A program made the translations under genes and the position numbers. The notes beneath the pieces were generated by a model. It saw only the letters and a program-made list of their open reading frames with translations, searched no databases and was not told where the DNA came from. Below, piece after piece: positions 4,366 to 11,830 of a stretch of DNA of 64,000 bases. The first letter of the stretch is position 1; each line of letters begins with the position of its first letter. Origin of the DNA: a virus (Duplodnaviria; Caudoviricetes). The stretch is from the IMG/VR virus record IMGVR_UViG_3300021399_000098, one strand, 5' to 3'.

Positions 4366-7134
4366 TTATTTTTTATTTTCCAATTCAATAATCCTTTTTC
4401 TAAGCTCTTCATTCTGCATACTTAGATTTACACAGAAGTCCTCTAGATAAGAAAGTTTGAGCATCATAAATGCCGTATAGTCAACAGCCTTGAAGCCATC
4501 TTCCTTGGTATATACAAGCTCATTTAGACCAGCTGCCTCAACCTCTTGTGCGATTACACCATAAGTCTTTGTCTTATTTGGGTCATCCTTGAAGTTAAAT
4601 GACTTGGCTTGAACTCTCTTAGCCTTGTTGAAATCGTTTCTAGTAACTGGTTTGATATTCTCTTTTAATCTTTCATCTGAAGAATAGATTGCTGCTACAG
4701 CAGTAACAGTACCATCAATTTCTATTGGATATTCGAAAGTATAATAATCTCCTGTATGGCTACCATCGCTATTCTTATGATTCTTCATGTGACTGAACTC
4801 ATTAGGAATAGTAAAGGTTGTGGTTGAGCTTCCGCTTAAGTTAGAACACTTTGCAGTTGTTTCTCTAACATCGCCATATTGAGAACAAACCTTTGCACTT
4901 AGGCCATTGTTAATGGTAACTGAACCATCAACGATAGTATCACCCTTAATAATGGTGTCACCACTAATATGAGTATCACCAGTGATGTTGGTTACTGGAG
5001 AATTAATCGTCACGCTAGATGTTGAGTTAATGGTAACTGAACTTGAGGTCTTTCCACTGCTACAGTTAAGTCCGATATGTGTTTCCTTACCATACAAAGC
5101 AGCCTTTGTATTACCTTCCATACACAATGTAGTGTTAGCACTGATACTAGTTGAAGCTGTTGATGTGATGTTTACGTTTCCACCGTTCTCGTTGATTGTT
5201 GTACCTTCAATATTCGTAGTGGTTGATGTGTTGTTGTTGCAAGACTTACCAATGTTCGTGGTTGCACCATAGAAATTAGCGTTTGTTCCTGCTGACACAC
5301 AAGTTGCACCAGTTGAAGATACATTCACAGTTCCACCGCTTTCAGCTATTGCCTTACCGTTAATCGTGGTTATTGTAGATACGTTTGCGTTACGACAGTC
5401 AACACCGATATTGGTCTTTGAAACACCACAGAAAGTTGCATTTACGCTAGCTGTTGAGCAAAGGTCGTTGTTTGCTGTAATCACTATGTCGTTTTCAGCA
5501 GACTCAAGAATGTCTTCCTTTGCTGTCAAGCCTAAGTTACCAACTACTGCGTCAACGATTACTCTATTACCTCTAACGGTTGTTGTTGCTGCCGTTGCAG
5601 TGTTATCACAGCTAATACCAACGTTTGTATTCTGACTACCATACAACGTTATGTCTTCCCTACTGTTCAAGCACAAATCGTCTAATACGTTAATAGTAAC
5701 TTCGTCACCACCAAGATTAATTGTAGTACCGCTAATGTTGACTGTAGTAGCAGTAGTTGTGTTGTTACAGTCAATACCAATGTTGGTTTCAGCACCATAA
5801 ATGTTAGCGTTTGTTGCACCACTTATACAGACTACGTCACCATTGACATCATAGTTTGTGATGTTAACAGTACCATTCGTAAAGTTCTGTGTTAGGTTAG
5901 TTCCACCTTCATTGATTGTTGTGCCGCTAATGTTGATTGTGGTTGCAGATGCTCCACTGTTACAGTTTACACCAATATTAGTAGTTGCGCCATACAAAGC
6001 AGCCTTTGTTGCTCCGTTTAAGCATAGAACATCAGTATCTACCTTTACATCAGTAACAGCACTCATAGTTATCTCATCACCTGCATTGATGATGGTATCA
6101 CCAGCAGAAGTAATGTTAATTGTGTTACCGCTTTCATTAATGGTAGTTCCACTTAATCCTAAGTTAGGGGTTACATCACCGCCACAAGATACACCAACCT
6201 TCGTATTAGCTTTACCGTAGAAATCAGCATCTTTCTCTGCTGTAATACATACATTGTTGTTAGTACTAGTGATGTTGGTTGCTTCAGTTGATATTACATT
6301 AACGCTACCATTTGCACTGATTTGTGTATTACCAGTGGTATATGTTCCAATTGTTCCACCACTAATACTTGTAGTTGTAGCCTTAACATCAAAATTAGCA
6401 CCACTTATAGATGTCGTGCCAGTAGTCTTTATGGTTAAGTTCTCACCACTGTATGTATGGTTTGTTATATTGGTCGTTGCTGACGTTACAGTTGTCGTTG
6501 CAGTACCAATCGTAGTGTTAGCTGAACTAACTGTGGTAGTTGCTGTCTGAACATTTGTATATGCGCTGTCTGCAACAGTCTTAGCAGTACCAACATTAAT
6601 ATCCAATAAGCTTCCGCAAGAACCGTCTAAACCTTGAATCTTGGTTGTTCCTTGAAGCAAAGCACCGCAAGTTGTAGTGATTGAGCTAAATGAAGGATTA
6701 CCACCGTTCATTGCATACATGTCCATATTAACTGCGAAACCTGCACCATCTTTAGTTCCATCTGGTGAAAGTGGGTTGATTTCGTCTCCATGCATATCAA
6801 TAGCTCCATTTACATCTGTGCCATAAGGAGTCTTAGTAGGAACTACTTGGTTAATCTTAAATAAAAGCTGTGATTTGTTGTTTTTAAGGTCTTGCTCAGT
6901 AGGAATTGTTACGGTTGCTGAATAAGGGAAAACCTCTTTGTATTCCATCCAGTCTACAATCGTAGCATCCTCTGAAAATCTTACAACTTCATTATTGCTG
7001 TTCTTTGTGGAGATAAAAGAACCATTTTTGTTAGCATTCACCGCCAATTCACCCAATTCTAAAGACTGTGGCGTTGGCTGTTTGTCGAACACACTGCTAT
7101 GGATGTGTTGGACTTTTCTTCTGTCTTTTGCCAT
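4366..7134 (-). CDS. Tail fibre/spike protein with C-terminal peptidase S74 intramolecular chaperone domain
   Basis: C-terminal SSDERLKENI...YGVIAQEVE...VDY followed by a coiled coil is the S74 signature. Thr/Asn/Gly-rich beta repeats. N-terminal 'LELGELAVN' motif is typical of tail fibres. Start moved to MAKDRRK at 7134. Confidence 0.85.
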   Translation of the reverse strand: MAKDRRKVQHIHSSVFDKQPTPQSLELGELAVNANKNGSFISTKNSNNEVVRFSEDATIVDWMEYKEVFPYSATVTIPTEQDLKNNKSQLLFKINQVVPTKTPYGTDVNGAIDMHGDEINPLSPDGTKDGAGFAVNMDMYAMNGGNPSFSSITTTCGALLQGTTKIQGLDGSCGSLLDINVGTAKTVADSAYTNVQTATTTVSSANTTIGTATTTVTSATTNITNHTYSGENLTIKTTGTTSISGANFDVKATTTSISGGTIGTYTTGNTQISANGSVNVISTEATNITSTNNNVCITAEKDADFYGKANTKVGVSCGGDVTPNLGLSGTTINESGNTINITSAGDTIINAGDEITMSAVTDVKVDTDVLCLNGATKAALYGATTNIGVNCNSGASATTINISGTTINEGGTNLTQNFTNGTVNITNYDVNGDVVCISGATNANIYGAETNIGIDCNNTTTATTVNISGTTINLGGDEVTINVLDDLCLNSREDITLYGSQNTNVGISCDNTATAATTTVRGNRVIVDAVVGNLGLTAKEDILESAENDIVITANNDLCSTASVNATFCGVSKTNIGVDCRNANVSTITTINGKAIAESGGTVNVSSTGATCVSAGTNANFYGATTNIGKSCNNNTSTTTNIEGTTINENGGNVNITSTASTSISANTTLCMEGNTKAALYGKETHIGLNCSSGKTSSSVTINSTSSVTINSPVTNITGDTHISGDTIIKGDTIVDGSVTINNGLSAKVCSQYGDVRETTAKCSNLSGSSTTTFTIPNEFSHMKNHKNSDGSHTGDYYTFEYPIEIDGTVTAVAAIYSSDERLKENIKPVTRNDFNKAKRVQAKSFNFKDDPNKTKTYGVIAQEVEAAGLNELVYTKEDGFKAVDYTAFMMLKLSYLEDFCVNLSMQNEELRKRIIELENKK

Positions 7135-10625: not shown

Positions 10626-10632
10626 ATATTTG

Positions 10633-10719
10633 TACCTTCGGTGGGAGTCGAACCCACAATGTCCTTTCGGAACACTACATCCTTAGTGTAGCCTCTATAC
10701 CAAGTTCGAGTACGAAGGC
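10633..10719 (-). tRNA. tRNA-Leu(AAG)
   Basis: Acceptor GCCTTCG/CGAAGGT; perfect anticodon arm CTACA-CTAAGGA-TGTAG; long variable arm; GGTTCGACTCC; A73. Confidence 0.9.
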
Positions 10720-10728
10720 ATATTTTTG

Positions 10729-11332
10729 TAGCCCTGAAGGGAGTCGAACCCTCACGCCCATTCCTGGACCTTAGATTTTACCTACCACTCTATGTTACCA
10801 TAGCCAAACAACGTTTATTATTTAAACTTCATCAGCCTTTGGGCATCAGGTGAGCCTCTCACTCACAGTCTTTGTTTGTTGTAGTCTGGAATACATCTTT
10901 ACCATATTGAAATTCTTGCAAGATATGAATATATACTACTCGCACTTTTCAAAGCATTACCAATTACTAAGTGTATTATTCTCTCATATATACCCATAAT
11001 TTCAACTTAGGTATCTCCTATATACTCTCTACACATTTATGAGAAAATAGCCGCTATCTGCGCTACGTTGCTATTCTCTTGCGTCTGCTATTACTAGCTA
11101 GATTTCTCAATTTAGCACGGTATTATCCTTACACATTATTGATTAGTGTGGTGTTCTCTTAGTGCGCTGTGCATAACCTTTGAACTATAGTAGCACATGC
11201 CGTTTCCCAAGAAGGACTTCCACCGTTTTAGGGAGATTCTACATAGGGATTTCTCGCCTATGCAACCTATATTTCTGAGACTACTTTCTCTTGGTCTAGT
11301 CTAATGCGTACTACCAATTTCGCCACAGAGCC
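10729..11332 (-). tRNA. tRNA-Leu(UAA) interrupted by an intron (exons 11332-11298 and 10780-10729)
   Basis: The 5' exon GGCTCTGTGGCGAAATTGGTAGTACGCATTAGACT and the 3' exon TAAAATCTAAGGTCC...GGTTCGACTCCCTTCAGGGCTA join to give the arm TTAGA-CTTAAAA-TCTAA. Confidence 0.9.
10781..11297 (-). ncRNA. Group I intron (517 nt, no ORF of 60 aa or more)
   Basis: The exon ends in U and the intron ends in G. P3 ATCTCC/GGAGAT; P-like CGGTGGAAG (11225-11217); Q-like AATACCGTGC (11124-11115); R-like AGAGAGTATA (11030-11021); S-like AAGATGTATTCC (10899-10888); P7 GAGTA/TATTC; P2 GCATAGG/CCTATGT; 3' GNRA hairpin CTATG-GTAA-CATAG. Confidence 0.88.
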
Positions 11333-11340
11333 ATACAAAA

Positions 11341-11445
11341 AATCAATCTACACTGTTGTAACACACTCCCCACGCAGATATGTCAACACCTTTGATACCG
11401 TTGCTGGTTGGTATCTGCCCTTCCCAATTCTATCCTCGATTGATT
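11341..11445 (-). ncRNA. Candidate structured RNA of unknown class
   Basis: Closing stem AATCAATC/GATTGATT and inner stem GCAGATA/TATCTGC; GC-richer than its flanks; lies between the promoter and the first tRNA. Confidence 0.4.
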
Positions 11446-11504
11446 ATGTTGAATACGTTTATACAAAATTTGCACCGTAAACCATTCCCTTATGATTCAC
11501 GATG

Positions 11505-11536
11505 CAAATATATAAAAAATTTTTCAATTAACCAAA
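11505..11536 (-). promoter_or_regulatory. Bacteroidota-type promoter driving the tRNA operon
   Basis: TTTG-N20-TATATTTG. Confidence 0.75.
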
Positions 11537-11550
11537 CAATTTAGAAGTTT

Positions 11551-11685
11551 TTAACGAATAATTCTCTTTTCGCTTCTTCTTGACCTTCCACTTTCATTAA
11601 GAGGTCTGCTTGGATTTGGATTAGCTGAAACTACCTTGTTTGCTGTTGTAGTATTAGCCTTGTTTTTCTGACAGCCACATGCCAT
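11551..11685 (-). CDS. Small protein (44 aa) with N-terminal CxC
   Basis: Below the track cut-off: MACGCQKNKANTTTANKVVSANPNPSRPLNESGRSRRSEKRIIR*. Confidence 0.6.
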   Translation of the reverse strand: MACGCQKNKANTTTANKVVSANPNPSRPLNESGRSRRSEKRIIR

Positions 11686-11731
11686 AATTCAATATATTTT
11701 AATAACGTTATTTTTTTTGCATCGAGTCATA

Positions 11732-11830
11732 TTATACCAATCCTTGCAAGAGTCCTTGGAGTACCCTTGCATAGCTACGTTGTAACAATAAGTTACGAAT
11801 TTCTGACTCAATTGCTATAATTTTATTCAT
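11732..11830 (-). CDS. Possible 32-aa peptide
   Basis: MNKIIAIESEIRNLLLQRSYARVLQGLLQGLV*, with a TATTTAT motif ~22 nt upstream. Confidence 0.35.
   Translation of the reverse strand: MNKIIAIESEIRNLLLQRSYARVLQGLLQGLV

Follow-up and report, generated by a model that had tools for sequence, protein, structure and literature searches.

A phage tRNA-Leu(UAA) gene with a predicted group I intron from a large family of anticodon-loop introns

Group I introns in the anticodon loops of tRNA genes have been treated as a feature of bacteria and plastids, and the group I introns of phages as a feature of protein genes. Williams (2020, bioRxiv 10.1101/2020.01.27.920355) lists four classical and 17 new bacterial tRNA settings, and the four classical varieties are marked as subgroup IC3 in the intron database used for validation. 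For phages, Devoto et al. (2019, PMC6784885) stated that introns in phage tRNAs were previously unreported, and the full-text literature covered for this analysis, which lies outside the subscription journals, holds no account of a phage tRNA gene with a group I intron. The locus considered here lies in a 64,000-nucleotide (nt) stretch of phage DNA from IMG/VR record IMGVR_UViG_3300021399_000098, referred to throughout as the window, in which a tRNA-Leu(UAA) gene is split by a 517-nt insert, all of its parts being on the minus strand. Judged by comparison with related sequences, the insert is very probably a group I intron that follows U33 (U33/U34), has an IC3-like plan and is predicted to splice. 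The intron is real and looks intact, and the kind of element is already known; what appears to be new is the family to which it belongs, together with the niche of that family in phage tRNAs, the several sites to which it has been retargeted and the failure of the Rfam group I model RF00028 to see it.

The split gene was recovered by ARAGORN with its intron search, a check that had been suggested in the initial annotation, as a tRNA-Leu(taa) with a 517-nt intron on the minus strand ('agact-Intron-taaaa'). The sequence spliced in silico was called as an 87-nt tRNA-Leu(UAA) with the anticodon arm UUAGA-CUUAAAA-UCUAA. The 5' exon reads GGCUCUGUGGCGAAAUUGGUAGUACGCAUUAGACU and the 3' exon UAAAAUCUAAGG...CAGGGCUA, the latter holding the remainder of the anticodon arm, the long variable arm, the T arm, the acceptor strand and the discriminator A. 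Because the insert, as read from the sequence, begins with A and ends with G, U33/U34 is the sole junction that yields a 7-nt loop, CUUAAAA, with U33 in place, which confirms the junction and the terminal G at 10781 that were first proposed. Ligation is predicted to join ...UUAGACU to UAAAAUCUAA..., and the corresponding 22-mer of spliced RNA would be GCAUUAGACUUAAAAUCUAAGG. The spliced sequence is identical to the spliced tRNA of a related locus, L002, at 83 of 88 positions and to uninterrupted tRNA-Leu(UAA) genes at 79 of 88 (L048) and 77 of 88 (L044 and L046), so the two halves are no chance match. The longest sense-strand open reading frame (ORF) in the insert has 32 amino acids, in line with the original remark that no long ORF is present.

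Among the leucine codons of the long ORFs in the window, TTG (33.7%), TTA (25.7%) and CTT (23.8%) are the commonest, and the three phage leucine tRNAs (UAA, CAA and AAG) correspond to these three codons. A functional tRNA-Leu(UAA) is therefore plausible, and it would be obtainable by splicing alone; that the supply of this tRNA depends on splicing, as had been argued at the outset, follows from the anatomy of the gene.

The insert is not an isolated case. The first related loci (L001-L003) were found via a neighbouring gene, and scans for the family then used two core motifs, an exact pattern of the 5' junction having matched nothing. The two motifs occur in 23 and 27 IMG/VR stretches, with at most three copies per contig and on contigs of up to 401 kb; the same core is present in about 40 IMG/VR phage contigs and in 98 metagenome stretches. 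The motifs have 0 matches in 185,579 bacterial and archaeal species genomes, and the family appears to be known so far from phage and metagenome contigs only. Using guide complementarity and a canonical tRNA after splicing as criteria, an automated survey resolved 56 distinct introns, every one of them in a tRNA anticodon loop, with 25 of the 92 usable matches (identical copies unmerged) outside the resolved set. The host tRNAs are those for Leu, Arg, Ser, Lys, Tyr and Met, the positions are 33/34, 34/35, 35/36 and 36/37, and together they make eight settings: Arg-UCU 36/37 (15 distinct introns), Leu-UAA 34/35 (11), Arg-UCU 34/35 (10), Leu-UAA 33/34 (6), Ser-UGA 34/35 (6), Tyr-GUA 35/36 (3), Met-CAU 36/37 (3) and Lys-UUU 34/35 (2). 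The initial annotation had taken the insert for an independent invasion of one phage tRNA; the membership of this copy in a large anticodon-loop family does not sustain that view.

Guide and helix covariation across the family support the group I reading at 33/34. For 19 curated copies the splice sites were set by the fold of the tRNA together with a U preceding the intron and a terminal G, and in all 19 a guide located right 5' of P2 makes a U-1·G wobble plus two Watson-Crick pairs with the exon. Five exon/guide triplets are involved: ACU/GGU at Leu 33/34 (in full, exon GACU with guide GGUU), CUU/GAG at Ser and Arg 34/35 and at Leu 34/35 (there exon ACUU with guide GAGU), UGU/GCA at Tyr 35/36, UCU/GGA at Arg 36/37 and CAU/GUG at Met 36/37. 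P10, formed by the base 5' of the guide G and the first base of the 3' exon, is a Watson-Crick pair in 18 of the 19 and takes four forms (U:A in Leu33, A:U in most copies, G:C in Ser and C:G in Arg34). The terminal G is likewise shared, by 19 of 19 curated and 55 of 56 surveyed copies, the exception (L017) ending in A. Since the guide sits directly 5' of P2 in every copy, GACU/GGUU with the guide at 11267-11264 is the correct P1 of the window intron, with the U33·G wobble at the 5' splice site formed by the G at 11267. The pairing suggested initially was thus real, and its placement at 11266-11263 was one base off.

The fold of the intron was derived from the family alignment, in which near-invariant blocks are interspersed with four hypervariable regions, and comprises helices P2, P3, P4, P5, P5c, P6, P7, P8, a P9.0-like helix, P9 and P9b (Table 1). 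It has 75 pairs, with 96.3% of cells paired in alignment A1. Compensatory pairs, changed on both sides, number 26 as against 9.4±1.9 in shuffled alignments, a count reached by 0 of 500 shuffles; the covariation score is 0.171 (control, 0.070), and slid partners leave 33-48% of cells paired. The author's own script, applied to an E-INS-i alignment, gave the same picture. Most of the signal comes from P2, P5c, P6, P9 and the middle pair of the P9.0-like helix; P3, P4 and P8 are invariant and carry no covariation information of their own. P3 crosses P7 in the group I pseudoknot, and P7, presumed to be the guanosine-binding helix, has a bulged A adjoining G:C pairs, with GACUG/CAGUC-type variants in L033b and L031. 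A further hallmark read from the sequence is J3/4 AAA. The window copy, the sole one in the window, has 0 mismatches to all five core motifs of the family consensus.

Table 1. Parts of the split tRNA-Leu(UAA) gene and predicted elements of its intron (window coordinates).
Feature	Position	Strand	Remarks
5' exon of tRNA-Leu(UAA)	11332-11298	minus	acceptor, D arm, 5' strand of anticodon stem, C32, U33; ends ...UUAGACU; ARAGORN
Predicted group I intron, 517 nt, without ORF	11297-10781	minus	ARAGORN and family comparison
P1-loop hairpin AGAC...GUCU	11278-11297	minus	in six distinct 33/34 copies and truncated L043; role putative
Internal guide	11264-11269	minus	GGUU (11267-11264) pairs with exon GACU (P1); UA (11269-11268) pairs with 3'-exon UA (P10)
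P2 hairpin	11241-11263	minus	GAAA tetraloop 11253-11250; compensatory changes in 7/9 pairs
P3, 5' strand	11229-11237	minus	partner 11020-11013; 95% of cells paired, almost invariant
P4, 5' strand ACGGUG	11221-11226	minus	partner UACCGU 11122-11117; 100% paired, one compensatory change
P5	11217-11212 with 11130-11125 (whole 11125-11217)	minus	2 compensatory pairs; encloses variable extension
P5c, conserved hairpin inside P5	11149-11131	minus	4/4 pairs compensatory
P6 with variable extension	11109-11104 with 11045-11040 (whole 11040-11109)	minus	5/6 compensatory
P7, 5' strand G(A)GAGUAUA	11021-11029	minus	bulged A; partner UGUAUUCC 10895-10888; 2 compensatory pairs
P3, 3' strand UAGGAGAU	11013-11020	minus	immediately after P7
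P8	11012-10998 with 10914-10901 (whole 10901-11012)	minus	stem invariant, 99-100% paired
P7, 3' strand	10888-10895	minus	J8/7 AAAGA upstream (S-like element AAGAUGUAUUCC)
P9.0-like helix CUAC/GUGG	10884-10881 with 10788-10785	minus	middle pair U:A 9, C:G 7, U·G 4
P9 CAAACA/UGUUUG	10878-10873 with 10810-10805	minus	3 compensatory pairs
P9b hairpin CUAUG-GUAA-CAUAG	10803-10790	minus	GNRA (GUAA) loop, read from sequence
Omega-G, last intron base	10781	minus	9 nt past P9b in every copy
3' exon	10780-10729 (ARAGORN end 10729/8)	minus	U34, A35, A36 onward

The GNRA hairpin reported at first is P9b. The R and S elements lie away from the 3' end, where a reading from that end would put them: candidates there (UUCCAGACUACA and AACAUAGAGUGG), and with them a td-like IA intron, were ruled out by the aligned relatives, because P7 lies mid-intron (11029-11021 with 10895-10888) and P7.1/P7.2 are absent. 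In the window copy the 3' strand of P3 (P3') abuts P7 with no gap to hold P7.1/P7.2, and P7 is followed by about 110 nt of P9.0 and P9, the 3' domain spanning 10785-10884. Subgroup IA of the T4 td type was rejected on the same adjacency of P3' and P7, the 54-nt insert of five relatives falling after P3'. The P4/J6 segment ...ACGGUG...UACCGUGCUAAAUUG is, presumably, td-like.

Several observations weigh against this reading. Rfam, at the gathering threshold and at E<=10, left the window intron region unmatched, RF00028 included; at E<=10 RF00028 also left 12 related loci unmatched, among them copies of only 404-422 nt, and it left the family introns unmatched over five whole contigs. The structure was counted on the very sequences from which it was drawn, and these are related to one another; significance is consequently somewhat overstated by the shuffling and sliding controls. 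The whole precursor folds with unremarkable stability (z = -1.3). P1 has, on its exon side, only 4 base pairs (bp), two of them wobbles, and a stronger 6-bp helix, AGACUA/UAGUCU, which places U-1 opposite A and uses the 3' strand of the P1-loop hairpin, competes with it. This helix was considered as the catalytic P1 and rejected, the guide of the other members sitting directly 5' of P2 with a U·G pair; it may be a competing or extension hairpin.

The absence of a covariance-model match, which had been set in advance as a refutation of the intron, is judged not to be decisive, because RF00028 misses the whole family and yet, in the same run, detects another group I intron that one of these phages carries (L049, 47.4 bits). 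The model was also positive in 8 of 14 control genomes. A match to RF00028 is an operational test and no defining property of group I introns, and the comparative evidence overrides the miss. Williams (2020, bioRxiv 10.1101/2020.01.27.920355) noted that 0 of the 12 RF00028 seeds are bacterial and that 20% more tRNA introns were obtained with a dedicated model.

The short P1 also bears on whether the RNA would splice unaided. It is possible, if rather unlikely, that the group I fold is correct but that the naked RNA is made inefficient by its peripheral expansions and its 4-bp P1, so that in vivo it would splice only with the aid of a maturase, a host RNA chaperone or a protein that binds tRNA. 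Several group I introns depend on CYT-18-type or maturase help, and here P1 is short and rich in wobbles, the AGACUA/UAGUCU helix competes with it, the peripheral inserts are large and hypervariable, and a conserved palindrome in P8 has no assigned partner. However, the Azoarcus tRNA intron, as generally described, self-splices well with a 3-bp exon-guide pairing, the tetraloop-receptor pairs that stabilize the core are present, and no cofactor gene accompanies the intron, 54 of 56 copies being without an ORF.

For a group I intron that splices by itself, the sequence suggests the following course. The precursor would fold so that GGUU (11267-11264) pairs with exon GACU, setting U33 in the U·G wobble, and a free guanosine bound in P7 would attack after U33. 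The P9.0-like helix and P10 (UA/UA) would then bring omega-G (10781) into the same site, and ligation of the exons would produce the 87-nt tRNA-Leu(UAA) that reads TTA. The catalysis itself is inferred.

The P8 palindrome has no evident place in this scheme. In the window it is a perfect 8-mer, CUUGCAAG, at 10922-10915 on the minus strand (intron positions 376-383), and a perfect palindrome stands at the P8 junction in 55 of 56 copies (CTTGCAAG in 45, CTAGCTAG in 5, CTTCGAAG in 3 and CTCATGAG in 2). It has no loop and so cannot pair in cis; it may serve as a contact between two RNA molecules or as a site at the level of the DNA. To our knowledge, no described group I intron has a palindromic intermolecular (dimer) contact.

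Among the known systems, the intron of the Azoarcus sp. BH72 pre-tRNA-Ile(CAU), a member of IC3, offers a close comparison. As generally described, it likewise sits in the anticodon loop with a 3-bp exon-guide pairing, and it shares with the window intron the GAAA loop of P2, the 11-nt receptor in P8, the GNRA loop of P9 and the lack of P5abc and of an ORF; the tRNA-Met/Ile(CAU) copies of the family use the very same CAU/GUG at 36/37. The IC3 subgroup is recognized by the presence of P2, the absence of P2.1 and P5abc, tetraloop contacts from L2 to P8 and from L9 to P5, and a site in the anticodon loop. Features of this type in the window sequence are L2 GAAA, the 11-nt GAAA-receptor motif of P8 (CCUAAG, 11011-11006, with UAUGG, 10906-10902, plus a variable hairpin) and L9 GUAA, and P5 carries a 60-nt extension. 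By this description the architecture is like that of Azoarcus and IC3, with four large peripheral expansions. Unlike the Azoarcus intron, that of the window is about 2.5 times longer, has variable expansions in P5, P6, P8 and P9, lies at 33/34 in a tRNA-Leu, is phage-borne and goes undetected by RF00028.

Cyanobacteria supply precedents for both the site and the tRNA. Their tRNA-fMet intron can carry the I-Ssp6803I endonuclease; the window copy differs in having no ORF and in interrupting a different tRNA. The position is the same in Synechocystis and other cyanobacterial tRNA-fMet introns, namely 33/34 after the universal U33, and the identification of 33/34 as the fMet site in the initial annotation agrees with the variety named 'fMet.2Ug' by Williams (2020, bioRxiv 10.1101/2020.01.27.920355). 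The cyanobacterial and plastid tRNA-Leu(UAA) intron, 'Leu.3Ug' in the same source, occupies the same tRNA with the same anticodon, is also group I and has the same U-1 and omega-G. The window copy lies one base upstream of it, with U34 in the 3' exon, and the comparison made here is one of tRNA and site. The 11 distinct family members in Leu-UAA 34/35 are at exactly the cyanobacterial and plastid site, and copies at Leu 33/34 differ from them in having guide GGU instead of GAG and P10 base A instead of U.

On the phage side, the introns of protein genes (T4 td, nrdB and nrdD; SPO1 DNA polymerase with I-HmuI; Bastillevirinae, PMC11878797) are also phage-borne, mobile and often without an ORF, and a relative of the window intron, L026, encodes an I-HmuI-like HNH enzyme, as in the SPO1 system. 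Those introns are mostly of subgroup IA with P7.1/P7.2, in contrast to the present one, whose host gene is a tRNA and whose P3' directly follows P7. The 'enigmatic' tRNA introns of the Lak megaphages (Devoto et al. 2019, PMC6784885) are likewise tRNA introns of very large phages from gut-type samples; they were assigned to no class, one of them may encode a tRNA, and they are set beside the present family by description.

The loci closest to the window show how variable the state of this gene can be, with three states of the same tRNA lineage among L001, L002 and L003. L002 has a 518-nt homologue of the window intron at the same site. In L003 (8694-9437) the tRNA-Leu(UAA) gene of this lineage is interrupted by another kind of group I-like intron, at the classical 34/35 site, where the 5' exon ends in CUU, the intron in G and the 3' exon begins with AAAA; this intron, which RF00028 also misses, has P/Q/R/S elements of its own and a 162-amino-acid HNH ORF. 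L001, the closest relative, with flanks about 92% identical, lacks the intron-bearing gene at that place. At L001 7046-8150 a tRNA-Leu(CAA) occupies the position of that gene, and the locus includes, in addition, a tRNA-Leu(UAA) that is unrelated and uninterrupted, with a free-standing ORF containing HNH-like motifs after it.

Intron-less alleles, a search for which had been proposed in the initial annotation, do exist: with the predicted spliced junction as search pattern, tRNA-Leu(UAA) genes lacking the intron turned up at five loci from four contigs (L044-L048), 77-79 of 88 positions being identical to the spliced product of the window gene. L026 and L086 carry a 171-amino-acid ORF with NUMOD4, HNH_3 and NUMOD1 domains, similar to I-HmuI, which lies within the 3' strand of P7; in L026 (4275-4790) the HNH gene interrupts this strand between UGUAUU and CC (A1 columns ~815-1420), and L029 has a short remnant of the same insertion. 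The family thus shows both marks of mobility, an HNH ORF (L026, L086) and intron-less alleles (L044-L048). Parts of the introns are exchanged as well: the window copy and a tRNA-Met intron in L032 have identical P6 extensions, and L002 shares its P5 extension with a tRNA-Arg intron in L020. A conserved 54-nt module (UGAGGGAAAUACAUUGAAUACCCUCACAUUC...) was also observed between P3' and P8 in L029, L040, L008, L009 and L018, in different tRNAs (A1 columns 599-654). In a FastTree tree of the 56 copies (368 kept columns, including some variable regions) the target classes are intermixed, which is read as mosaicism in these sequences, with no order of events drawn.

The family is therefore read as selfish, freely recombining and retargeted several times, and the intron of the window is most readily explained as a mobile, selfish element, tolerated by the phage because it would splice out. 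Its route of movement could be homing with enzymes supplied in trans, or reverse splicing. Intron-less alleles in close relatives suggest that the intron is dispensable, and it is probably neutral to the phage. It is improbable that the intron has instead been co-opted by the phage, either to time the supply of tRNA-Leu(UAA) or to keep a pool of precursor that host anticodon nucleases could not cut. In tRNA-directed defence, phage tRNAs are known to serve both as targets and as counter-measures, the family is confined to phage-type contigs and to anticodon loops, and TTA is a common codon in the window, but closely related phages have this tRNA gene without the intron, the gene that bears it is missing entirely from L001, the nearest relative, the mature tRNA would still be cleavable, and the patchy distribution, HNH gene and shuffled modules fit a selfish element; protection from anticodon nucleases, an idea already raised in the initial annotation, is speculation. 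Less likely still is a dead tRNA with an inactive insertion, the phage using another tRNA-Leu(UAA) or that of its host: the RF00028 match is absent and the view is limited to 64 kb of a much larger genome, yet the exons still form a canonical tRNA, the intron agrees with every invariant core position of the family, U-1, omega-G, guide and P10 all suit this exact site, and six distinct 33/34 copies in different phages keep their exons intact.

A more far-reaching view of the selfish family can be put forward tentatively, as a rather unlikely conjecture. The family would be a naturally reprogrammable ribozyme lineage that moves by reverse splicing from one anticodon loop to another. Two or three altered guide bases (for example GGU in place of GAG, with A for U in P10) would suffice to reach a new tRNA or a site one base along; the P8 palindrome would be a dimer contact, and tRNA group I introns would be harboured and spread mainly by phages.

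Some matches to the core depart from the common arrangement. The P9b tail is absent from 44 of 142 core matches. In L039 (~11240-11800, minus strand), L042 (10800-11400), the second copy of L040, L061, L075, L104 and L119, the intron is followed by a normal 3' half of tRNA-Arg; its 5' side is a 7-nt acceptor strand, ACAUCCG, right after another tRNA, with neither D arm nor anticodon strand. L027, L072, L093 and L122 have AAG at the guide position and a 3' exon that begins CUAAAGAG or CAAGCUGA, and their 5' flank resembles a complete Trp CCA anticodon arm. A common non-tRNA sequence, GGUCAGUGGUGGAGGACUG...GUCAGCCCCUAACAA, precedes the 5' half of the core (P2 to P3') in L013, L015, L021, L023 and L025, where the usual S/P9 end is absent. 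A related phage contig, L111, has a full tmRNA (5469-5851; RF00023, 74.7 bits) beside a long tRNA array.

The window itself is phage DNA, with a G+C content of 35% and predicted baseplate wedge, tail fibre, head maturation protease and SbcC-like nuclease proteins. Among 50,697 deposited phage records, blastn found no match to the intron, the region matching neighbouring tRNAs only, and a 3-kb gene block of the window had zero matches. Default ARAGORN and Rfam report only the four downstream tRNAs, namely Leu-AAG, Leu-CAA and two Gln-UUG. The first of these (10632-10719) has an anticodon that is unusual for bacteria and is shared with L001, L002 and other relatives.

Because these genes escape both RF00028 and the usual tRNA finders, tRNA counts for large phages come out too low and inferences on codon usage and code recoding are affected, which a family-specific covariance model would remedy. 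Engineers of permuted-intron circular RNA or trans-splicing ribozymes may find the very short guides of interest, along with the tetraloop-receptor core and those members that are as compact as 404 nt. For the biology of these introns, a single family joins the bacterial and plastid tRNA setting to the phage one, across at least eight combinations of tRNA and position and with a site-matched guide in each copy. It provides a natural data set on the retargeting of a ribozyme, including a one-base slide within the same tRNA.

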